From a virus, in UHGV virus genome UHGV-1374556: a DNA stretch of 37,445 nucleotides; one strand, given 5' to 3'. Shown here one piece after another: positions 158 to 35,857 of the stretch. The translations under genes were made by a program, and so were the position numbers. Below the pieces are notes generated by a model. The model was not told the origin of the DNA and made no database searches. It was given only the letters and a program-made list of their open reading frames with translations. Positions within the stretch are counted from its first letter, which is position 1; each line of letters begins with the position of its first letter.

Positions 158-169
158 TAAAGTCACAAA
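158..169. repeat. attL core candidate TAAAGTCACAAA
   Basis: Exact 12-bp match to 37393-37404. Overlaps the integrase stop codon (TCA on the plus strand at 163-165). Confidence 0.6.
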
Positions 170-1299
170 TCAATGATTATCTTTTCTAGCTCTTTTCGCA
201 GATCCTCTATGTCACGGTGGCCGTAAACCTTGTTGGTAATGTCGGCCTTGAATGAGTGTCCCATCATCCGTTTACGGTCGTTTTCTTTTACCTCATACTT
301 TTCGCACAACATAGAAAATGTATGCCGGCAGTCATGTGGTGTATGTTTGGGGTCACCTGGAATTCCAAGCCGGTTTAGTAGCTCATCCATTTGTTTTCTG
401 AAATCTTTGTCGCTGCACGGAAGGAGCTTCCCATACTTGCTTATCCGGCGTTCAACCAAAGGGAGAATACCGGAATGAATTGGTACGATACGTCCTTTAC
501 CAGCTTCCGTTTTTATTCCACCCATAAAATACTTTTTCTGTAAATTCACTTCGAGGCCAATGTATTCTGATATACGCCATCCGGAATAGCACATTATGAG
601 AAGCATCTCAGCGGTTTCATTTGTTTTGTTATCCCACAGGATTTTCAGGTCTGCATCTGAAAATGGCACACCATGTTCATCATCGTCATCCCGTTTGATT
701 TTGACATACTGGCTATAATCCTTATCACACCATCCTTGACTGTCAGCGTACTTATACATTTGCCTGTACAGGTTCCTGATAAGTTCCAGGCTGGCATATT
801 TTAGATTACACGCATCCAGGTTATCCTGCAGGTCTTTTGCGCGGAGGGAGCTAAATATTTTATCATAGAGAGACGCACAGTTTTTATATGCGGCCTTGAT
901 TGAATATTTGGTTGCATTAGAGTATTTATTGCCTTCGGAGAATTTATCCGTGTAGAAGGCCTTGTAGACCTCTGAGAAGGTCTTTTCGGGTTCGTCCGGT
1001 TCAATTCCCTTGACGCGGTTGTAATCAGCCATAATCTTTTCCGCCAGGGCATCAAGGCTCCCAGTGGAATCAGGCAGCCGCAGGGTGGCCTCCATGCCGG
1101 GGGTATAGGTGCCAGCTTTGAGGGATGTGAGGATGATGAAGCCTTTCATCCAGTCATCCACGTAGCAGAGGGCCGGGGGCCGGTTCCCATCAATGTCTGC
1201 CGGTGGGTGGACCGCATAGGGGTTCCTCCGGCTCTTGCCAAGGTATCGGATGGAGCCGTAGCCGTTGGGGAGCCTGGGATGTTTCTTTCGTTTTGGCAT
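163..1299 (-). CDS. int: Tyrosine recombinase / phage integrase
   Basis: 378 aa. C-terminal catalytic motifs HDCRHTF...MMGHS...VYGHRD (R, H-x-x-R, H, Y). Positioned at the prophage end next to att. Confidence 0.9.
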   Translation of the reverse strand: MPKRKKHPRLPNGYGSIRYLGKSRRNPYAVHPPADIDGNRPPALCYVDDWMKGFIILTSLKAGTYTPGMEATLRLPDSTGSLDALAEKIMADYNRVKGIEPDEPEKTFSEVYKAFYTDKFSEGNKYSNATKYSIKAAYKNCASLYDKIFSSLRAKDLQDNLDACNLKYASLELIRNLYRQMYKYADSQGWCDKDYSQYVKIKRDDDDEHGVPFSDADLKILWDNKTNETAEMLLIMCYSGWRISEYIGLEVNLQKKYFMGGIKTEAGKGRIVPIHSGILPLVERRISKYGKLLPCSDKDFRKQMDELLNRLGIPGDPKHTPHDCRHTFSMLCEKYEVKENDRKRMMGHSFKADITNKVYGHRDIEDLRKELEKIIIDL

Positions 1300-1315
1300 A
1301 ATATCATTCCTTTCC

Positions 1316-1331
1316 GTTGCGATATCGCAAC
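1316..1331. promoter_or_regulatory. Palindrome GTTGCGATATCGCAAC, copy 1 of 4
   Basis: Perfect 16-bp palindrome lying 16 nt upstream of the int start codon, just 5' of its RBS GGAAAGGA. Identical copies at 10007, 19785 (14-bp core) and 34997. Confidence 0.7.
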
Positions 1332-1481
1332 TGATTTTGGGTAAAATTAATACGCCCCTTGCCAGGACGTTTCAGGAATGATATAATTTACTTGCTTAAG
1401 GTAATTATATCTTCCGTGGCAGTCCGGTAAGAGAATCTATGCGAAAAGCTCTAGGGGTTTGCGGCTCCTGGGGCTTTCTGC

Positions 1482-2285
1482 TTATTGCTCGGTTGCTATT
1501 AAAGAGTACTTCGCACTTGTACTGATTTCAAAAGTGTAATCGGATTCTAATTTTAAATTACTATAAGAATCCCTTACTATTTCCTTTAAGCGGTCATTTT
1601 TGTCTCTTACGGTCAGACTCCCAATTCCATTTTCTTTGACAACATTATAAACTCCAGATGGAATATCCTTCCCGACCAGATAGTTTCCTGGAGTAAAGCT
1701 AAATGCTTCTGGTTGCGATTCCGATTCTGTATCACTCTTCATGCTCTCAGTGGTTTCGCTTTCGATTGGAACAAGCATCTCGTTTTCAGATTCAGAAGTT
1801 TCTCCATTTTTTTCATCCCAAATATGAGAAAGCACAGAGTTTCTATCCTTATCACACCAAATAGTAATCATAGGGACGTCCCCAACATATTGTGTCCATA
1901 GGACATGGTCATAATCAAACCAATCTTGGTTCATTAATTCATTTATTTGGCTTCCAACAACTTTGGAATCGGCACCTGATAAGGTGGTTATATACAGTAA
2001 CTGCTGCCCATCAACGCGCACCCCCGTCACGGTACTCCCTATAAGATTCGAATATGCATAGTCAGCAACCTTGTCAAAGGAAGTCTCTGCTTGATTAGGG
2101 GAAGACGAGCTATCCTCGTTGGATTGCTGTAATACTGCCGCGTATTCAGATTCCATTTCTGTATTTTTTTCTTTTAGAATATTATATTCCGATTTTAGCC
2201 TATCGTATTCATTCTGCGAAACCCCATTGCTACATGCTGTTAATGAAAGCACAAGCAGGGGGAAAATAATAAAGCGCTTTTTCAT
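1482..2285 (-). CDS. Lipoprotein moron between int and the repressor module (Ltp-like superinfection-exclusion candidate)
   Basis: 267 aa. Signal peptide plus lipobox LSLTAC-S. AT-rich relative to neighbours. AGGAGG RBS upstream of the ATG. Confidence 0.7.
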   Translation of the reverse strand: MKKRFIIFPLLVLSLTACSNGVSQNEYDRLKSEYNILKEKNTEMESEYAAVLQQSNEDSSSSPNQAETSFDKVADYAYSNLIGSTVTGVRVDGQQLLYITTLSGADSKVVGSQINELMNQDWFDYDHVLWTQYVGDVPMITIWCDKDRNSVLSHIWDEKNGETSESENEMLVPIESETTESMKSDTESESQPEAFSFTPGNYLVGKDIPSGVYNVVKENGIGSLTVRDKNDRLKEIVRDSYSNLKLESDYTFEISTSAKYSLIATEQ

Positions 2286-2333
2286 AAAACCTCCTTAGTT
2301 TTGGTTATGCCATTTTTATTAAAAAGCAATAAG

Positions 2334-2771
2334 CTATTTTAATCTTAAATCAAGTAATTCTTCTGGATACCCAGTACATTTGCAGAACTGATTCTTTGTG
2401 CACCCGACATAGCATTTTAGTAGCTCATTATCAATAAGGAGATGGGCTGCAAATATATTTGCCTGTTTTTCTATCCGCGAGGTCAAAAGAAGTGTACTAT
2501 TCTTCATAAACGCACAGTTTTCTTTTGGATGCATTACTGCATGACCAAGTTCGTGCGCCAGAACAACTCGGAGAAATATTGCATCATCGATGTCTGAATT
2601 GAGAAAGATGTATTTCCTTCGTTTTAGCAATTTGTAAAATCCGGCAACAACATCTTCTAACGGTGCCCTGATTATGGTCACACCAAGATAATCCGCAATT
2701 TCTTCCGGGTCACCAGTTTTATATTTTCTTTTTAGATATGAAACAAGTTTTTTTATTTTTTTACTATTCAA
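2334..2771 (-). CDS. immA: ImmA/IrrE-family metallopeptidase (HEXXH), anti-repressor protease
   Basis: 145 aa. LAHELGHAVMH zinc-metalloprotease motif. Sits directly downstream of an XRE repressor as in ImmR/ImmA pairs. TTG start with AGGTGGTGA RBS. Confidence 0.75.
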   Translation of the reverse strand: MNSKKIKKLVSYLKRKYKTGDPEEIADYLGVTIIRAPLEDVVAGFYKLLKRRKYIFLNSDIDDAIFLRVVLAHELGHAVMHPKENCAFMKNSTLLLTSRIEKQANIFAAHLLIDNELLKCYVGCTKNQFCKCTGYPEELLDLRLK

Positions 2772-2795
2772 AGTCCATTCACCACCTAGACCCAG

Positions 2796-3236
2796 TTATT
2801 CCTTTTCAGGTCTGGGCTTATGCTTGTATGGTCGATAGGTTTCTTTGTTCTTAACTTTTGCATCTTCCAACGCTATTTCTATTGCATTCCTCAATAAATC
2901 TACTTTGTTTTTAGGGATTGGTTTGTCATTGTAATATAGAGGGCTATCCTCTCCATCTGCTATTTCCTTCATTATTCGGTCAAGATCTTTTGCAATATTA
3001 CGTTTGTCCCGGGCAGTTAATCCTGGAGCCATCTCTTTGGGTTCATTTTTCCCCGTCATTAAATAATCCACACTCACACCAAAATAATCAGCTATCTTTT
3101 TCATATTGCCACTTTTGGGAGTACTTCGGCCACGTTTCCAGTCGCTGAGCGTAGATTGTGTGACTCCTGTTTCTTTTGACACTTTGTAGGCCGTTACGCC
3201 ATTCTTTTGTAATAATTGTTCAAATATCTCATACAT
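2796..3236 (-). CDS. immR: XRE-family HTH repressor (CI/ImmR-like)
   Basis: HTH motif YKVSKETGVTQSTLSDWKRG. Trimmed to the MYEIFEQ start at 3236, which has a GGTGG RBS. No S24 peptidase domain, consistent with an ImmA-dependent repressor. Confidence 0.8.
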   Translation of the reverse strand: MYEIFEQLLQKNGVTAYKVSKETGVTQSTLSDWKRGRSTPKSGNMKKIADYFGVSVDYLMTGKNEPKEMAPGLTARDKRNIAKDLDRIMKEIADGEDSPLYYNDKPIPKNKVDLLRNAIEIALEDAKVKNKETYRPYKHKPRPEKE

Positions 3237-3291
3237 AATTGTCCACCTTTCACAAACCGCAGACAATACTATGAAAAACCGAAAAATTCTA

Positions 3292-3320
3292 TTGACATTA
3301 TCGGAAATGCATAGTATAGT
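3292..3320 (+). promoter_or_regulatory. Sigma-A-like promoter, TTGACA-17-TATAGT, for the rightward early operon
   Basis: TTGACA at 3292-3297, 17-nt spacer, TATAGT at 3315-3320, within the divergent int/cro-type intergenic region. Confidence 0.55.
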
Positions 3321-3412
3321 ATGAGCATACAAAGGAATTACGTTGTAAAACCTTTGCACACTGCGGAAATGTTATTTACTTCGTCTGATAAACAAAGCAT
3401 ATCACATTTCCG
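3302..3412. promoter_or_regulatory. Three copies of the operator-like half-site CGGAAATG
   Basis: CGGAAATG at 3302-3309 and 3364-3371, with the inverted copy CATTTCCG at 3405-3412. All lie between the divergent repressor and cro-like genes, overlapping the promoter. Confidence 0.5.
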
Positions 3413-3447
3413 TAGCATTTTCAATATTTATATTAAAGAAAGGTGGT

Positions 3448-3666
3448 GTGGTTTTGTACAAAAAATTTGCAGCTTTATTAGAGAAAAGTAACAAAACATC
3501 TTATCAAGTATCTAAAGAGACAGGAATTGCTCAATCTGTTTTATCTGACTGGAAAAATGGCCGTAGCAAACCAAAGTTTGACAAATTGTTAATCCTGGCA
3601 AAATACTTCGGCGTACCAGTAGAGTACTTTGCGGATAGTGAAAAGACAGAAAAGGAGGATACATAA
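3448..3666 (+). CDS. XRE-family HTH, Cro-like regulator
   Basis: 72 aa. HTH YQVSKETGIAQSVLSDWKNG. Divergent from the repressor. GTG/TTG-region start with AAAGGTGG RBS. Confidence 0.8.
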   Translation: MVLYKKFAALLEKSNKTSYQVSKETGIAQSVLSDWKNGRSKPKFDKLLILAKYFGVPVEYFADSEKTEKEDT

Positions 3667-3667
3667 T

Positions 3668-4255
3668 ATGAGTGGTATTTTTAATGAGGTTTTTACAGGA
3701 AGAGACACATCGAGGCTGACCCCGATTGAAATTGCATTGGGGATTGACAACGAAGGGAGAACAACGGCAACAAAGCTCTACGATTTTCTGGAGCTGAACC
3801 CCAGCAACTATTCCAAGTGGTTCCGTAAGAACATTCTTGAAAATGAGTTTGCGGAAGAAACAGTGGATTATTTCCCATTCGTACTCCGGTACGAGTCGCT
3901 GACAGGCGAAAAGGAGAGGCAGGATGCCAAACTCACGGCCCATTTTGCAAAGAAGCTTTCGATGGTTCAGAAGAATCAGAAAGGTGATGCAGCCAGGAAC
4001 TACTTTGTAGGCGTGGAAAATGGGGCTAAAAATCTGATATCGCAATACAAAGCGTTATCACCAACTGAACGCCCAGGAGAGGTGGCTAACCTTATAAAGG
4101 TGATTACCCGGATAATGGAGAAACAGGGTTCTGCACCTTGTAAGGTCTCTGAGAACGCACAACTTATCTGCGCCCAGTACGGAATTACCTTGTCCTCTGA
4201 TTTTGTGAAGGTTCCAGAATATGAGCAAATGAGCCTTGATGATTTTATGAAATAG
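3668..4255 (+). CDS. Phage antirepressor-like protein (KilAC/Ant-type C-terminal domain)
   Basis: Start at MSGIFNEV with AGGAGG RBS, spacing 9. Motif ARNYFVGVENG is typical of the KilAC/antirepressor domain. The family call is tentative. Confidence 0.55.
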   Translation: MSGIFNEVFTGRDTSRLTPIEIALGIDNEGRTTATKLYDFLELNPSNYSKWFRKNILENEFAEETVDYFPFVLRYESLTGEKERQDAKLTAHFAKKLSMVQKNQKGDAARNYFVGVENGAKNLISQYKALSPTERPGEVANLIKVITRIMEKQGSAPCKVSENAQLICAQYGITLSSDFVKVPEYEQMSLDDFMK

Positions 4256-15586: not shown

Positions 15587-15784
15587 ATGAATGAATTTGG
15601 ACAAAGACTCTCTGAGTTGATGAAGAAAAATCAAATGTCAGCATATCGGTTGGCTAAGGAGTTGGATATTCACCAGACTACGATAAAAAATTGGCGTGAA
15701 GGCAAGTGCGAACCTATGGCAAGTCATATAGTGAGCATTGCAATAATATTCAACGTTACATGTGATTATTTGTTAGGGAGGTAA
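15587..15784 (+). CDS. XRE-family HTH regulator
   Basis: 65 aa. HTH MSAYRLAKELDIHQTTIKNWREG. Confidence 0.7.
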   Translation: MNEFGQRLSELMKKNQMSAYRLAKELDIHQTTIKNWREGKCEPMASHIVSIAIIFNVTCDYLLGR

Positions 15785-15789
15785 TCGAA

Positions 15790-16209
15790 TTGGAATTGAC
15801 AGAAAATGAAAAGAAGAAGGAGTTCCTGATGTCCTATCAGAAGGAGAAGCGGCGGGTCCGGCGTTTGGAAGAGCAGTTGGAAGAACTGAGGCGGAATAAA
15901 ATGTCTCCTTCTGTCACCAATGACGGGATGCCTCATGGTACGGATAAGAAGGATTTGTCTGATTACGCAGTGAAGGTGGACGAGATAGAGCAGGAACTGG
16001 TTGCAGCCCGGTACTGCCGGATATGTGCATTTCAGGAGGTACAGAAGCGGATTGAGGCTATGGAGGATGAGAGAGAAAAGGATTTGCTTACATACCGGTA
16101 TCTTAAGGGGCTTAAATGGGAAGAGGTTGCTGTACGAATGGGATATAGCTGGAGGAAAATACACTATCTACATAGTGATGCCTTGGAGCATTTTGAAATT
16201 TGTGCATAG
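15790..16209 (+). CDS. DUF1492 / ArpU-RinA-like late transcriptional regulator (sigma-70 region-4-like)
   Basis: Motif SPSVTNDGMPHG...VDEIEQEL...YRYLKGLKWEEVAVRMGYSWRKIHYLHSDALEHF matches the DUF1492 pattern. Sits upstream of the packaging genes. TTG start with GGGAGG RBS. An alternative ATG at 15829 has an AAGGAG RBS. Confidence 0.65.
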   Translation: MELTENEKKKEFLMSYQKEKRRVRRLEEQLEELRRNKMSPSVTNDGMPHGTDKKDLSDYAVKVDEIEQELVAARYCRICAFQEVQKRIEAMEDEREKDLLTYRYLKGLKWEEVAVRMGYSWRKIHYLHSDALEHFEICA

Positions 16210-16388
16210 AAGTGCACAGTCAATCTGTGTTATAATGTATGAAAAGAAGTGGGCCTACCGGAAACGGCGGGCCTTCTTCCTTTTCCTCTTGGGTGAAATT
16301 CAGACCAGCGAGGAATCCATTCCAGTGCGGGGGCTTTTCTTTTGCCGAAATTTGGTGTAAGATATAAAAAAGCGTGGAGGGTGTATTT

Positions 16389-16883
16389 ATGGAGAGTATA
16401 GCAAGTGGAAGTAATGCAATTTCTGTAACAATAAATTCGTCTAATAGTATATTTTGGACTATCATCTCAGGTGTATTAATATTTATATTAGGACAAATTT
16501 TTGTTGAGGCCATACTGAAGCCACACAAAAGATTTAAAGAACTTAAAGCAAAAATTTCATATTCATTAGTTTTGTATGGAAATATTTACAGTAGCCCGTT
16601 GATAAGAGAGATGAGTAGTGTGGCTGAATTAGGAGAATATGAAGCAGTTGGGAGTGAACTAAGGAAATTGGCATCAGAGCTGACAGGATATCTTGAAGAA
16701 AGGTGGTCAGTGACAGGAAAAGTAAACTCCAATAATATATCAAAGGCGGCTAGTGCATTAATAGGACTATCAAATACTTTAATAGTAAGTGAATGTCATG
16801 TAGATAGGGCGCGTGAAAATAACAGTAGAAGAGTAGAAATCATAAAAGAATCGTTGAAAATACAAAGAAAGATTGAAGTTTAG
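16389..16883 (+). CDS. AT-rich moron: single-pass membrane protein of unknown function
   Basis: 164 aa from MESIASG with GGAGGG RBS. TM helix FWTIISGVLIFILGQIFV. Markedly AT-rich versus its flanks. Its own terminator lies immediately downstream. Confidence 0.65.
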   Translation: MESIASGSNAISVTINSSNSIFWTIISGVLIFILGQIFVEAILKPHKRFKELKAKISYSLVLYGNIYSSPLIREMSSVAELGEYEAVGSELRKLASELTGYLEERWSVTGKVNSNNISKAASALIGLSNTLIVSECHVDRARENNSRRVEIIKESLKIQRKIEV

Positions 16884-16887
16884 ATTA

Positions 16888-16916
16888 GCGGGTTGCTTTT
16901 GCGCAGCCCTTTTTTA
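16888..16916 (+). terminator. Rho-independent terminator
   Basis: Stem GGGTTGC / GCAGCCC (16890-16896 and 16903-16909) followed by TTTTTT. Confidence 0.7.
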
Positions 16917-16955
16917 GTACTCGTAACTTGTCAATAAGAGAAGAGAGGCAATAAG

Positions 16956-17339
16956 ATGCTTAAGTCATGTAAATACTGTGGTCGCATCCATGACAGCCAG
17001 TATGACTGCGGCAGGAAGCCACAACCTCAAAAGAAGATAACCTACATAGACCGGTTCCGTAGCTCCAGAAAGTGGAGGGAGAAACGGGAGCAGATACGCC
17101 GGCGAGACAAGAACCTCTGCCAGGTGTGTATCCGAAACCTTTACGGCACGGACCGGCAGTATAACTACGAGAATCTGTCCGTTCATCATGCCATACCGAT
17201 AGAGACGGACTATGACCGGCGCCTGGATGATGACAACCTGCTGACTGTATGCGGGGTGCACCATGAGATGTGTGAGAGCGGAGAGATACCGTATGAAACT
17301 ATAAAAGAGATTATAGATGAACAGGAGGAAAGTCAGTGA
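16956..17339 (+). CDS. HNH endonuclease (packaging-associated)
   Basis: 127 aa. HNH motifs SVHHAIP and CGVHHEMC. N-terminal CKYCG zinc motif. Immediately upstream of the terminase genes. Confidence 0.85.
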   Translation: MLKSCKYCGRIHDSQYDCGRKPQPQKKITYIDRFRSSRKWREKREQIRRRDKNLCQVCIRNLYGTDRQYNYENLSVHHAIPIETDYDRRLDDDNLLTVCGVHHEMCESGEIPYETIKEIIDEQEESQ

Positions 17340-17569
17340 GACTATGGATTGAAGTTGAAAACGGAAAACGGGTTGAATGTGAAGAGATTAAGACGGTAAA
17401 CGGCCAGGATAGCATTCTTGTCTTTGAGACAGCCAAGAAGCTGACGAAGTCATGCATAGATGACTTTCGTAAGTACATCAAAGAGCAGACCGGTCATGAG
17501 TGTGTCCTGGTGGGTGCAGGAATCCGTCTGGTGGCGGAGGTATCCCCCGGGGAGTTGTGTAAAAAATAG
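17336..17569 (+). CDS. Hypothetical protein
   Basis: 77 aa. GTG start overlapping the HNH stop. AGGAGG RBS, spacing 7. Confidence 0.5.
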   Translation: MRLWIEVENGKRVECEEIKTVNGQDSILVFETAKKLTKSCIDDFRKYIKEQTGHECVLVGAGIRLVAEVSPGELCKK

Positions 17570-17653
17570 ACACACTTCGGGACACCGACGCCCCACCTCC
17601 AAACACACAAAATCTTAGAAATGAGAATATCGGCCCAGAAGGAAGGTGATAGG

Positions 17654-18121
17654 ATGGCAAGGCCAGCTAAATCAGCCAGGGTAAAGACTGGCACAATTAC
17701 AAAAGAAGAAGAGGCGCAGCGCCTTGAGCTGGAGGATAAGCTTCGCGGGAAGAATGACAAACTGGTACCGCCGCTGTACCTAACAGAATCCCAGATGGAG
17801 ATATTCAACTACATTATGGCCGAACTGCAGGAGGCCGACATCCTGGGTAACCTGGACCTGTTCATCCTGGCACAAACCGCCATTGCTGTTGACCGTATTC
17901 AGGAGCTGGACCGGCAGGCCAACGATAAGAAGGAACTGCTCTTTGAGAATTCCTTCCGGATGGCCAGGGCCGAAGCTTCAAAAGAATACTTCCGGTGCTG
18001 CAATGAGCTGTGCCTATCCCCTCAGAGCCGGGCGAAGCTGTCTATTGCGAAAGTGAAGCCTGGAGAGAAGAAAAAGACCATCATGGATTTAATCAATGAG
18101 GACAACGAAGACGAAGGTTAA
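17654..18121 (+). CDS. terS: Terminase small subunit, P27 family
   Basis: Start MARPAKSARVKTGTITKEEE, typical of P27-family TerS. GGAAGGTGA RBS. Confidence 0.8.
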   Translation: MARPAKSARVKTGTITKEEEAQRLELEDKLRGKNDKLVPPLYLTESQMEIFNYIMAELQEADILGNLDLFILAQTAIAVDRIQELDRQANDKKELLFENSFRMARAEASKEYFRCCNELCLSPQSRAKLSIAKVKPGEKKKTIMDLINEDNEDEG

Positions 18122-19784
18122 GCACCCGGCGGTCGCATATGCTGAGGGGGTATGCCGGGGAAAGATTAAAGCGCCGAGGTACGTAATCCTCCAGTGTGCA
18201 GACTTTTTGCAGACGTACAAAGGGAAGAACAAGAAATATATCATCAATGAGAGTCTGCTGGATAAGATATATAAGATTCTTAAGGTGCTCAAGATGGCCA
18301 AGGGACCCAAGGCTGGGAGGTCCATCTATTCGGCGCTGGCCGGGTATCAGTGGCTGCTCATAACGGCGGTCCTCTGTACGGTCCATCGGAATGACAAACG
18401 GATGCGCCGGTACCAGACGGCGGTCCTGGAGATTTGCAGGAAGAATGGCAAAACATTTGTTGTTGCTGTTCTTTTTATTTTGCTCTTTTACCTGGAGCCG
18501 GCCTATTCCCGGTTCTTTTCCGTGGCGCCGGATGGGGCGCTGGCCCGTGAGATTAAGGAGGCTCTGGAGCCGCTGCTGGCAACCAACGTGGAGGTCTTTG
18601 AGGAAAACGAGTTTAAGGTGCTGCGGGACTACATCCTGCATAACCCCACAAAGACGAAGTACACGCCACTCAATTATTCCACCAGCAGGATGGATGGTAA
18701 GGAACCCAGCGTGTTTATTGCGGATGAAGTGGGAGCGCTTCCCACCTCCTACCCGGTGGAGGCCATGCGTTCCGGCCAGCTGCTCATCCGGAATAAGCTG
18801 GGGTTTATCATCTCAACCAAATACCCAACAGCGGACAACCCTCTGGAGGATGAGGTGGACAACGCCAAGAAAATCCTGGATAGTCTGATTGATGATGAGA
18901 CCGTGTTTGCCCTACTCTATGAGCCAGACAATACAAAAGATTGGGCTACGGACGACACCATCCTGGCCCATGGAAATCCTCTGGCATTGGAAATTGAGAT
19001 GGTATGGGATGAACTGCTAAAGAAGCGCCGGAATGCTATCAACCGTGAGAAGCTGCGGGAAAACTTCCTGACCAAGCACTGTAACATCATCTATCAGGGC
19101 GCCGGGACAGAGACATACATCCCGATTGACCAGGTGAAGGCCTGCAAGGTACCGCGGATAGACTGGGAAGGCCGGGAGGTTTATGTGGGGGTTGACCTTG
19201 CAATGACAAACGATAACTGTTCCGTGACCATGTCGGCGGAGGAGGACGGGGAGATACTGAGCCACGTCATGACATTTATACCAGAGGGAAGGATTGATGA
19301 AAAGAGTGAGTTTGAGAAGTTTGATTACAGGGCGGCCATTGCCGCGGGAACCTGCATTGCCTGCGGTGATATGACAGTGGATTACGGTGTGATTGAGGAC
19401 TACGTGGCAGGCCTGGAAGAATCCAGGGGTGTGGTTATTAAGTCAATCGGCTACGACCGGTATAATGCCCTGTCAAGCGCCCAGAAATGGGATAAGGATT
19501 ACACAACAGTAGAAATACGGCAGCATTCGGACACCCTGCATCCTCCCACCAAGTTATTGGCGGAGATGGTGGCAAACCAGAAATGGCATTATGAGGAAAA
19601 CCGGTTGCTGGAAACCAATTTTGAGAACGCGAAGTGTACCTATGACACCAACATGAACCGGTATGTCAACAAGAAGAAATCCAAGGGGAAGGTGGACGGA
19701 GTGGTGAGCATTATCAACTCAGTGTACCTGCTCCAACAGGATATCCTTTTTGACGACAGTGGTTTTACAGTGCAGGTGTGTTAG
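18096..19784 (+). CDS. terL: Terminase large subunit
   Basis: 562 aa. N-terminus HPAVAYAEGVCRGKIKAPRYVILQCADFL. Walker A RKNGKT. C-terminal nuclease region. Overlaps terS. Confidence 0.9.
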   Translation: MRTTKTKVKHPAVAYAEGVCRGKIKAPRYVILQCADFLQTYKGKNKKYIINESLLDKIYKILKVLKMAKGPKAGRSIYSALAGYQWLLITAVLCTVHRNDKRMRRYQTAVLEICRKNGKTFVVAVLFILLFYLEPAYSRFFSVAPDGALAREIKEALEPLLATNVEVFEENEFKVLRDYILHNPTKTKYTPLNYSTSRMDGKEPSVFIADEVGALPTSYPVEAMRSGQLLIRNKLGFIISTKYPTADNPLEDEVDNAKKILDSLIDDETVFALLYEPDNTKDWATDDTILAHGNPLALEIEMVWDELLKKRRNAINREKLRENFLTKHCNIIYQGAGTETYIPIDQVKACKVPRIDWEGREVYVGVDLAMTNDNCSVTMSAEEDGEILSHVMTFIPEGRIDEKSEFEKFDYRAAIAAGTCIACGDMTVDYGVIEDYVAGLEESRGVVIKSIGYDRYNALSSAQKWDKDYTTVEIRQHSDTLHPPTKLLAEMVANQKWHYEENRLLETNFENAKCTYDTNMNRYVNKKKSKGKVDGVVSIINSVYLLQQDILFDDSGFTVQVC

Positions 19785-34509: not shown

Positions 34510-34953
34510 ATGGATAAGGTGAAAGCAGCGTTTGTTGCAGCATTTAGCATGATTTTTGGATGGTTGGGAATTCTGGCAGTTCCCGTGCTTATACTGGCTG
34601 GATTGAATTTTACAGACTACATAACCGGTATCCTGGCATCAAAACGGCGCAATGAGCTGGTGACCAGTGACAAGGGACTGTGGGGCATCGTCAAGAAGAT
34701 AGGTATGTGGATATTGGTGGGATTAGGATGGGCTATGGATGTGCTGATTAATTATGCCGGCCAGTATGTAGGACTGTCTATTAAACTGCCCTTCGTGGTT
34801 GCTACCATCGTGGCAGTATGGCTTATATGTAATGAGATAATCAGCATCCTGGAAAATCTGCTGGATATCGGCGTGGCCATGCCGCCATTTTTAATGCCGC
34901 TGGCCAGGATGATTAAGGGGCAGGTTGAAGATAAGACAAAAATGGATACCTGA
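34510..34953 (+). CDS. Holin
   Basis: 147 aa with three predicted TM helices and a charged C-terminus, immediately upstream of the endolysin. Confidence 0.8.
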   Translation: MDKVKAAFVAAFSMIFGWLGILAVPVLILAGLNFTDYITGILASKRRNELVTSDKGLWGIVKKIGMWILVGLGWAMDVLINYAGQYVGLSIKLPFVVATIVAVWLICNEIISILENLLDIGVAMPPFLMPLARMIKGQVEDKTKMDT

Positions 34954-34996: not shown

Positions 34997-35026
34997 GTTG
35001 CGATATCGCAACTTGTGACGTCACAA
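34997..35026. promoter_or_regulatory. Palindrome GTTGCGATATCGCAAC (copy 4 of 4) abutting a second perfect palindrome TTGTGACGTCACAA
   Basis: 16-bp palindrome at 34997-35012 is directly followed by a 14-bp palindrome at 35013-35026 in the holin-endolysin intergenic region. Confidence 0.7.
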
Positions 35027-35034
35027 CTTTTCAT

Positions 35035-35067
35035 GGCTCAGGGATGTCCCTGGGCCTTATTTTTTTT
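35035..35067 (+). terminator. Rho-independent terminator between holin and endolysin
   Basis: GGCTCAGGGATGTCCCTGGGCC stem-loop followed by TTATTTTTTTT. Confidence 0.65.
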
Positions 35068-35083
35068 GATGGAGGAAAACACT

Positions 35084-35857
35084 ATGAGTAAAACAGCAGC
35101 AGGATTAATACGGCACTGCAAGGACAAGCTGGGAACCCCTTACGTCTACGGCGCCAAGGGCGAGGTCCTTACCCAGGCCATCCTGGACCGCCTCGCCCGG
35201 GAGAACCCAGGTACATACACATCCACTTACAAAGCTAAGGCAGCCAAGTACATAGGCCAGCGCTGCACGGACTGTTCCGGCCTTATCAGCTGGTACACTG
35301 GGCGCATCCGCGGCAGCTACAACTACCACGACACAGCCGTGGAGCGCGTGGGTATCGACCATCTGGACGAGTCCATGGTCGGCTGGGCGCTGTGGAAGCC
35401 GGGCCACATCGGGGTATACATAGGTGATGGTTGGTGTATTGAGGCCAAGGGCATCAATTACGGCACCATCAAGTCCAGAGTGACCGCCACACCCTGGCAG
35501 AAGGTCCTCAAGCTCTGCGACATCGACTATACCCCGGTCCCAGTGACATGCACCCAGGGCTTTCATCCGGCCGCAGACGGCCAGCGCTGGCGGTATCAGT
35601 TTACAGACGGCAGCTATGCGGCTAATGGCTGGTATTGGCTCCGGGAGGCCACGGACGGTACCTATGGTTGGTATCTGTTCGATTCCGAGGGCTACATGCT
35701 GACCGGCTACCAGGTGGACCCCGCCGGTGAGGCATTTTTACTCTGTCCAGTCAAGGGCAGCGACGAGGGCAAGTGCATGATTACGGATGCCAGGGGAGCG
35801 CTCCGGATTGCAGAAGAATACGACATGGTAAATCGACGGTACGTGTTCGAGTGGTGA
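35084..35857 (+). CDS. Endolysin: NlpC/P60-family peptidase with C-terminal cell-wall-binding repeats
   Basis: Start MSKTAAG with GGAGGA RBS. Catalytic Cys in RCTDCSGLISW and His in GHIGVYIG. Repeats GWYWLREATDGTYGWYLFDSEGYMLTGY (CW_binding_1-like). Confidence 0.8.
   Translation: MSKTAAGLIRHCKDKLGTPYVYGAKGEVLTQAILDRLARENPGTYTSTYKAKAAKYIGQRCTDCSGLISWYTGRIRGSYNYHDTAVERVGIDHLDESMVGWALWKPGHIGVYIGDGWCIEAKGINYGTIKSRVTATPWQKVLKLCDIDYTPVPVTCTQGFHPAADGQRWRYQFTDGSYAANGWYWLREATDGTYGWYLFDSEGYMLTGYQVDPAGEAFLLCPVKGSDEGKCMITDARGALRIAEEYDMVNRRYVFEW

Follow-up and report, generated by a model that had tools for sequence, protein, structure and literature searches.

The stretch of DNA analyzed here, called the window throughout, comprises 37,445 nucleotides (nt) of UHGV virus genome UHGV-1374556, and the subject of this report is a single AT-rich gene within it that encodes a predicted membrane protein of 164 amino acids (aa) and lies between the gene for a late-type transcriptional regulator and the packaging genes (Table 1). 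A preliminary description of the sequence had presented this gene as a recently acquired moron with its own promoter-like region and terminator and had suggested that it carries defense cargo. Its placement of the gene was correct: a regulator matching both Sigma70_r4 and phrog_36 lies upstream, and the genes for an HNH endonuclease, TerS, and TerL follow downstream. The conspicuous AT richness was also borne out. The G+C content (GC) of the open reading frame (ORF) was 0.331 compared to a window mean of 0.472 (47% for the backbone), a level equally low in only 0.11% of 495-nt segments (z = -2.7), and the GC at third codon positions was 0.236 versus 0.54 to 0.66 in the flanking genes. Homologs share their start methionine with the ATG at 16389; an alternative GTG start at 16374, which lacks a ribosome-binding site, was rejected.

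A cargo site between the late regulator and the terminase genes

We compared the locus to the same site in related phages. Relatives of the regulator gene were found on 32 viral contigs, with identities of 77 to 96% in 20 of them and 46 to 51% in the others, and five of the 32 (L029, L030, L036, L038, and L048) also carried the same HNH and TerS genes. The flanking genes in these collinear phages were 84 to 96% (regulator), 87 to 95% (HNH), and 98 to 99% (TerS) identical to those of the window. Two of the five, L036 and L038, had an empty site, in which the HNH gene directly followed the regulator and a hairpin and the two genes were separated by 154 bp with a GC of 0.49. The other three carried different cargo, consisting of a 126-aa protein with a zinc ribbon and a coiled coil (L030:468-848), a 160-aa protein with multiple transmembrane (TM) segments (L029:4602-5084; GC 0.30), and a zinc-ribbon protein of 203 aa whose tail is endonuclease-like (L048:4481-5092; GC 0.37). 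Cargo was also found after the regulator in phages with other downstream genes. A 219-aa relative of the L048 cargo (GC 0.35) was present together with HicAB in L055 (4432-5888), which is without this HNH and TerS and for which the HicA/HicB-like assignment was made by reading the sequences, and in L033 (4727-5023) a 98-aa protein (GC 0.34) preceded an HNH-like gene and a packaging module that were both different from those of the window. Contig L075, read on its reverse strand, stacked two cargos, one of the L048 type and one a 61%-identical copy of the window moron. The 203- to 219-aa zinc-ribbon/endonuclease-like cargo has a perfect TTGACA-17-TATAAT promoter.

The 164-aa protein itself was indexed, in identical form, in 338 blocks of the metagenome assembly collection, and in all eight of the loci listed it lay between the regulator and the HNH gene. 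These eight phages differed in their regulator alleles and in their replication modules, which were of either a Prim-Pol/DUF927 or a DnaB-like type. In this set of eight loci, for which identity of the protein was the selection criterion, the moron gene differed from that of the window by 0 to 4 nt, with every change synonymous and at a third codon position, and the 72-nt spacer downstream of the ORF likewise had 0 to 4 differences, while the adjacent HNH gene differed at 32 to 39 of its 384 nt (approximately 10%). Even with this selection, the contrast in divergence between the moron and the HNH gene shows that diverged backbones have recently exchanged the cassette. The upstream leader in these phages (L095 to L102) was of two types, with either 0 or approximately 34 differences from the window in 179 nt. 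Independent metagenome assemblies L002, L003, L004, and L005 break inside the moron ORF, so that the product predicted by gene callers is a fragment of 90 aa truncated at its N terminus (P0004); these assembly breaks probably reflect strain heterogeneity at the hot spot.

The window gene is a true moron, a recently mobile single-gene cassette in a cargo hot spot that extends from the regulator to the terminase genes. It is present or absent between collinear phages, it deviates from its surroundings in base composition, and it has its own terminator. The recent acquisition proposed in the preliminary description is supported both by the empty sites in L036 and L038 and by the unrelated low-GC cargo in L029, L030, L033, L048, and L055. 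The term moron was defined in phages HK97 and HK022, and in lambdoid phages stx lies downstream of Q-PR'-tR'. The window cassette shares with these classical morons the arrangement of a promoter (here promoter-like), an ORF, and a terminator, the deviant GC, the presence or absence in related phages, and the position just after a late regulator and a terminator; it differs in residing in a Clostridia siphophage and in having a promoter that is putative. The order of regulator, TGnTATAAT box, and putative terminator resembles the lambdoid Q-PR'-tR' antitermination arrangement. As a moron the cassette is architecturally unremarkable, and cargo of this kind would be anticipated between regulator and terminase.

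The signals around the gene were assigned to either the backbone or the cassette by the same comparisons. The stop codon of the regulator gene is directly followed by the motif TGnTATA[AG]TGTA in L029, L030, L033, L036, L038, L045, and L053, and the corresponding extended -10-like box of the window lies outside the cassette. It is followed by the hairpin that the preliminary description had noted upstream of the gene and had described as having a T-rich tail. The hairpin exists (-21.3 kcal/mol, z = -2.45), although its tail is C/U-rich and it is not part of the cassette. Of the 32 viral contigs with the regulator, 16, the empty-site phages among them, had its core, CCGGARACG, approximately 50 nt past that gene, and only two of the close contigs were without it. 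Substitutions in the stem keep the pairing (for example, in L040 and L026), and a run of U residues follows the stem in most relatives. Because the hairpin is conserved after the regulator in most related phages, even those with an empty site, it is a backbone element, and ownership by the cassette was ruled out. It is predicted to be the terminator of the regulator gene or else an attenuator that acts on the late operon close to its promoter. In L026 to L041, L055, L075, and L095, as in the window, the hairpin stands no more than approximately 10 nt behind a TGnTATAAT box.

The promoter-like hexamers of the preliminary description were retained in part. A sigma-70 scan upstream of the gene detected no promoter scoring at least 9/12, and the best candidate, TTTTCT-17-TAAGAT, scored 7/12. 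The element is nevertheless common to cargo-bearing phages irrespective of their cargo (the window, L095, L029, L033, and L075), with the consensus GGCTTTTCWTTTG...TTTGKTGTAWRMT at window positions 16332-16363. The critical positions A2 and T6 of the -10 hexamer are invariant across the cargo-bearing phages, the L033 version (TTTTCA-17-TATAAT) is near consensus, and the empty site in L036 lacks the element. We regard it as a weak, putative cassette promoter that takes its weight only from conservation in related phages. The clean terminator reported downstream of the gene, GGGTTGC/GCAGCCC plus T6, was recovered by a terminator scan (-12.6 kcal/mol, z = -2.7). Since this terminator precedes the packaging genes, late transcription must read through it by antitermination or be only partly blocked. 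A search of Rfam with positions 15700 to 17400 returned no family match. The cassette is thus predicted to extend from about 16315 to about 16945 and to comprise the promoter-like box, the Shine-Dalgarno sequence, the ORF, and the terminator.

The encoded protein and its family

The protein has one TM helix (core aa 25-43) near its N terminus followed by a soluble helical region and has no Pfam motif, as the preliminary description had it. Among 195 family members, the TM helix starts at a median residue of 8, and the lysine plus arginine count is 3.1 on its C-terminal flank versus 0.5 on its N-terminal flank, with a C-terminal excess in 94% of the 195. Because of this excess, the positive-inside rule implies a predicted single-pass inner-membrane protein with its short N terminus outside and the C terminus in the cytoplasm. 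An AlphaFold2 model built from 79 sequences reached a predicted local distance difference test score (pLDDT) of 90.0 and a predicted template modeling score (pTM) of 0.79. In this model a long helix (aa 17-62), which includes both the TM segment and a stalk, packs with helices 78-104, 114-129, and 135-156 to form a four-helix bundle, and an earlier model from eight sequences had the same topology. In the homology and structure searches that the preliminary description had proposed, structure comparison gave only generic four-helix-bundle matches and PADLOC gave none for the window protein.

Conservation was measured across the 79 sequences. In the TM helix the conserved columns included G28 (76/79), Q/E36 (75/79), P45 at the membrane boundary (75/79), T24 (67/79), and E40 (57/79), together with S27, G/S35, and K44. 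In the bundle they were Y49-K50, L60, the YANxYxNP motif (aa 63-70), R92 (76/79), N145, and the LIGLSN motif (aa 124-129), in which S128 was present in 75/79 and N129 in 78/79 sequences. Conservation in the TM helix goes far beyond the needs of an anchor. One face carries small residues, and close to the inner leaflet two positions are polar or acidic, a pattern suggesting that the helix may associate with other helices or take part in a conducting assembly.

The family is large. When 1.84 billion representative proteins were searched with a profile, 1,735 clusters, defined at 50% identity, were returned at E values of 1e-3 or below, and 727 of these were at 1e-10 or below; nearly all of the best 150 of the 1,735 were single-domain proteins of 140 to 190 aa. 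Close homologs of the window protein numbered 12. The only family matched was phrog_7512 (PHROGs v4), which has no assigned function. The window protein matched it with an E value of 3e-8 over aa 18-63, and six of seven relatives tested matched it with E values from 5e-17 to 2e-5, some over their full length (a satellite gene, E 5e-17; P0164, E 2e-9; P0008, E 1e-7). The sequences from which this profile was built belong to the proteobacterial phage branch, and its alignment with the window protein covers the TM and stalk part only. Pfam and NCBIfam searches with the window protein and 79 diverse members gave nothing meaningful, and a sequence-profile search of the PDB gave chance matches only (E of 0.12 or above). 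One member, P0006 (L010:653-1453), is longer, at 266 aa, and has a C-terminal extension with two more hydrophobic segments; it stands alone between the housekeeping genes rpmF/yceD, ackA, and pta.

Megablast and tblastn searches of GenBank phages with the locus and the protein gave no match, nor did a megablast search of E. coli genomes with the satellite homolog, and an alignment-based scan of genomes for related loci found none. A degenerate DNA pattern detected five genome loci and 30 metagenome loci, 26 of the latter with a family member, and 0 loci in the viral contigs. Because this pattern gave just five genome loci, the family appears to be rare among species representatives.

Neighborhoods of the family and possible functions

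We examined the genomic context of family members in a sample of approximately 38 distinct loci outside the window, 35 from homolog look-ups and DNA pattern scans and three from later contig look-ups; a viral scan was a further source of loci. The pattern scans contributed four genome and 23 metagenome loci, all from one clostridial subclade. Neighbors were annotated by Pfam counts over 117 neighboring proteins and by targeted Pfam and PADLOC scans. At approximately 17 of the 38 loci, the member was inside or adjoining a type I, II, or III restriction-modification (RM) operon, in many cases with the stop codon of one gene overlapping the start codon of the next, and at least 10 distinct architectures were RM linked. 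In type I loci the member (denoted [M]) occupied the order hsdS-[M]-hsdR (L019, L061, and L062), with an E value of 2e-109 for the L019 HsdR. In type II loci (L006 to L008) a helix-turn-helix (HTH)-C5-methyltransferase and then Eco47II were followed by the member with a 4-bp overlap, and in L077 a C5 methyltransferase and a HATPase_c_3 protein lay beside it. Approximately 12 loci were type III-like, with the order Mod-(variable 170- to 320-aa gene)-[M]-Res or Mod-[M], and their neighbors included N6_N4_Mtase (nine times), ResIII (seven times), and RE_endonuc (five times). In L106 the gene order was SNF2-DUF4391-TIR-Mod-[M].

Members also lay next to other defense genes, namely those for Drt2 (E 8e-131), a TIR-like effector, PDC-S15 with its FRG domain, and a protease like that of type XI retrons, and near GmrSD-HNH and AbiH. 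On mobile elements the gene occurred singly. Enterobacterial capsid-encoding satellites carried a lone member, such as the gene at L013:4140-4607, on the opposite strand between the capsid and primase genes, and the P1-like phage D6 carried one, orf109, between humD and phd/doc. All-against-all clustering of the 117 neighbors revealed no recurrent partner besides the RM genes. These neighborhoods (RM, DRT2, TIR-like, PDC-S15, and GmrSD) give real but circumstantial support to the defense cargo suggested in the preliminary description. What is new here is a large, unannotated, and confidently folded family that recurs inside RM operons and defense islands and yet is absent from PADLOC and Pfam.

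Several further observations were made on these neighborhoods. The trio of a Mod-like methyltransferase gene, a gene for approximately 170 to 215 aa, and the member was accompanied by a type III Res gene in L076 and, where the upstream flank is missing, in L086; it occurred without Res in L067, L070, and L081, where the downstream genes were small and on the opposite strand. The pooled downstream neighbors, counted without assignment to loci, included ArdA (twice) and DUF3846 (three times). In L059, a Vibrio parahaemolyticus plasmid (NZ_CP114188.1, 257138-268745), the member was one of a same-strand run of hypothetical genes that also encoded DUF2971 and DUF4365 proteins and a YiiX/YebB-like hydrolase and that may be a cassette array or a defense island.

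Based on these contexts and on the conserved residues, we favor the reading that the moron encodes a putative stand-alone anti-phage defense effector of the abortive-infection type at the cytoplasmic membrane, and we judge the balance for and against it to be even. In the mechanism that we propose, the protein would be harmless when made constitutively, because homologs are translationally coupled to RM genes that are themselves expressed constitutively, and it would act autonomously, because it is carried solo on phages and satellites. On infection, the cytoplasmic bundle would sense a phage product or the failure of restriction, and the TM helix would then self-associate through T24, G28, G/S35, Q/E36, and E40, depolarize the membrane, and abort the infection. 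The gene would presumably be expressed in the lysogen, where the cassette terminator would shield the packaging genes from moron transcription.

A number of points weigh against this interpretation. Guilt by association is the sole functional evidence for defense. There is no homology to a validated defense protein: PADLOC (PADLOC-DB v2) assigned 0 families to the window protein, and the 79 members gave only single matches, at E values above 1e-3, to unrelated models. Approximately 14 of the loci had no defense neighbor or too little flank. Since the pattern-based loci come from one clostridial subclade, many of the RM-linked loci are nonindependent, and nine Mod proteins form one cluster. No RM gene is near the moron within the window, the putative promoter is weak (7/12), and we infer pore formation or oligomerization purely from residue conservation. 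Because the gene lies directly downstream of the TGnTATAAT box and the hairpin, expression by late read-through, mainly late in the lytic cycle, is equally possible, and because a Tad2-like counter-defense gene occupies the neighboring hot spot in L099, the region does not hold defense cargo exclusively.

A wider proposal, which we put forward tentatively and consider rather doubtful, is that the family is a widespread and so far unrecognized class of membrane-anchored "backup" effectors wired to RM types I to III. Like PrrC or RonA, these effectors would counter anti-restriction, with the conserved cytoplasmic four-helix bundle as the sensor and the TM helix as the pore, and phages, capsid-encoding satellites, and P1-like plasmid prophages would have captured the gene as solo cargo. 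If true, the defense interpretation would add a common, unannotated single-gene system of approximately 1,700 clusters to the defense catalog, would account for the "hypothetical" gene that recurs within RM operons of types I and III, and would extend the restriction-linked backup immunity of PrrC and Ronin to Gram-positive gut bacteria and to several RM types. The hot spot between regulator and terminase, with its shared promoter-like leader, could be mined for more defense and counter-defense genes.

The main rival to a defense effector of the abortive-infection type is superinfection exclusion, in which a prophage inner-membrane protein blocks the entry of DNA from related phages without killing the cell. 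We consider this unlikely. Most of the bacterial homologs are chromosomal and share operons with RM, DRT, or TIR genes instead of residing in prophage lysogeny modules, and a protein that is nearly all cytoplasmic would be little exposed to an incoming injection apparatus, although superinfection exclusion (Sie) genes are typically carried alone, as this gene is on phages, satellites, and a P1-like plasmid prophage, and the moron does encode a small prophage membrane protein within a cassette of promoter-like box, ORF, and terminator. Functional analogs would be T4 Imm, lactococcal Sie2009, and SieA of phage P22, the last of which has 162 to 164 aa and three TM segments and bears the motif FxRYPxEAxxFNK at its C terminus (PMC10883804). 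The window protein is near SieA in size, and it resembles SieA, T4 Imm, and lactococcal Sie2009 as a small, prophage-encoded, inner-membrane accessory protein, but it has one TM segment and not three, its family is found in RM operons whereas SieA is found in phages, and it matched no PHROG Sie family. Identity with SieA was rejected on the TM count and on the absence of the motif when the sequence was read. A benefit in the lytic cycle, conferred by read-through from the late promoter and consisting of lysis timing, membrane remodeling, or counter-defense, has in our estimation only a slim chance of being correct. The position of the gene after TGnTATAAT and a terminator would make it the first gene in any antiterminated late transcript, it gave a weak, TM-only match to the holin phrog_9987 (E 0.061), and anti-defense is represented by the Tad2-like gene in the next hot spot of L099. 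Nonetheless, the gene is dispensable, being absent from collinear phages, a bona fide holin and a candidate lysin are encoded elsewhere in the window, and homologs inside defense operons would be unusual for anti-defense or lysis genes. Identity as a holin was rejected, as the holin of the window is a separate gene and the moron is outside the lysis cassette.

The idea of latent backup immunity is modeled on PrrC. By this model the protein might be an RM-dependent guard, PrrC-like or RonA-like, that is held inactive by an RM complex and is freed by an anti-restriction attack, with the phage copy using the RM system of its host; we think this quite improbable. Members in L019, L061, and L062 occupy exactly the niche that prrC has in the type I locus EcoprrI, where it is coexpressed with the hsdS and hsdR genes on either side of it, and in type III loci members lie between mod and res, often with 1- to 4-bp overlaps. 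The window gene itself does not share this niche, since it is phage borne and has no RM neighbor near it, and the gene is likewise solo in the satellites and D6. The association of the family with at least three mechanistically unrelated RM types and with DRT2, TIR, and GmrSD also argues against a single partner. PrrC is a soluble, ABC-ATPase-like tRNA nuclease, whereas the window protein is a TM helix with a four-helix bundle and is without Pfam or NCBIfam domains, and the two have no similarity in sequence or fold; in particular, Pfam and NCBIfam scans detected no PrrC/RloC-type ABC-ATPase-like or anticodon-nuclease domain in it. Both PrrC and RonA are cell-death effectors within or linked to type I RM loci, and RonA, the effector of Ronin, is a 61-aa single-TM protein linked to hsdS-hsdM for which membrane disruption has been proposed (bioRxiv 10.1101/2023.04.06.535777). 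The likeness to RonA lies in the small, single-TM protein, the tight linkage to RM genes, and the nuclease-less variants, as the trios of Mod, an intervening gene, and the member without Res recall the nuclease-less Ronin. Compared by description only, RonA differs in having no soluble domain, while members of the window family have 140 to 190 aa and a cytoplasmic four-helix bundle, and in being invariably linked to hsdS-hsdM, while the window family occurs with RM types I, II, or III or solo. The possibility that the gene encodes a selfish toxin or addiction membrane protein, which stabilizes mobile elements and RM islands and has no role in defense, is very remote. It would fit a small membrane protein on mobile elements, the D6 copy beside phd/doc, and the HicAB genes in the L055 hot spot, but neighbor clustering revealed no conserved antitoxin-like partner, and members are translationally coupled to RM genes that are constitutively needed.

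Other features of the window phage

The window is the genome of a temperate siphophage, with an integrase, an ImmA/IrrE and HTH pair, a holin, and a candidate lysin (Table 1). Its host is probably Enterocloster (Lachnospiraceae); one close cluster member of the moron protein comes from Enterocloster clostridioformis, with the annotation "hypothetical protein."

Table 1. Features of the moron cassette and of the surrounding phage genome, by window position
Feature	Position	Strand	Basis or remarks
Integrase	163-1299		
267-aa protein, no assigned function	1482-2285	-	
ImmA/IrrE Peptidase_M78	2334-2771	-	
HTH_3 repressor-like protein	2796-3359	-	
Late-type transcriptional regulator, sigma-70 region-4-like domain	15790-16209	+	Sigma70_r4, E 1.7e-5; phrog_36, E 5e-21
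Extended -10-like box TGTTATAAT	16228-16236	+	Conserved backbone, outside cassette; alignments with related phages
Hairpin GAAG-GGGCCU-CCG GAAA CGG-GGGCC-CUUC, C/U-rich tail	16246-16279	+	Backbone element
Promoter-like element (putative)	16335-16363	+	-35 TTTTCT (16335-16340), 17-nt spacer, -10 TAAGAT (16358-16363)
Shine-Dalgarno sequence GGAGG	16376-16380	+	8 nt before ATG; direct sequence reading
Moron ORF, phrog_7512-like family	16389-16883	+	164 aa plus stop; ATG 16389 to TAG 16881-16883
TM helix, aa 20-43	16446-16517	+	Hydropathy, core aa 25-43; K44-P45 at membrane boundary
Cytoplasmic helical-bundle domain (predicted), aa 46-156	16524-16856	+	Stalk 46-62; helices 78-104, 114-129, 135-156
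Intrinsic terminator GGGTTGC-TTTTGC-GCAGCCC + T6	16890-16915	+	Terminator scan; stem 16890-16909, T6 16910-16915
HNH endonuclease, first gene of packaging module	16956-17339	+	phrog_144, E 3e-19; Pfam HNH, E 0.0034 (below gathering score)
TerS	17621-18121		
TerL	18096-19784		
Holin	34510-34953		Phage_holin_4_1, E 2e-25
Candidate lysin	35015-35857		After holin; weak NlpC/P60 match, E 3e-4 (below gathering score)

A low-GC stretch also lies beside the integrase, on the minus strand at positions 1300 to 3900, and the 495-nt segment with the lowest GC overall begins at 3201. The interval between the HNH and TerS genes (17336-17620) is a second small variable region. It contains a 77-aa ORF in the window, a gene of the Tad2-like (anti-Thoeris) family in L099 (5948-7081), and an extra 177-aa gene in L102 (6318-6851).

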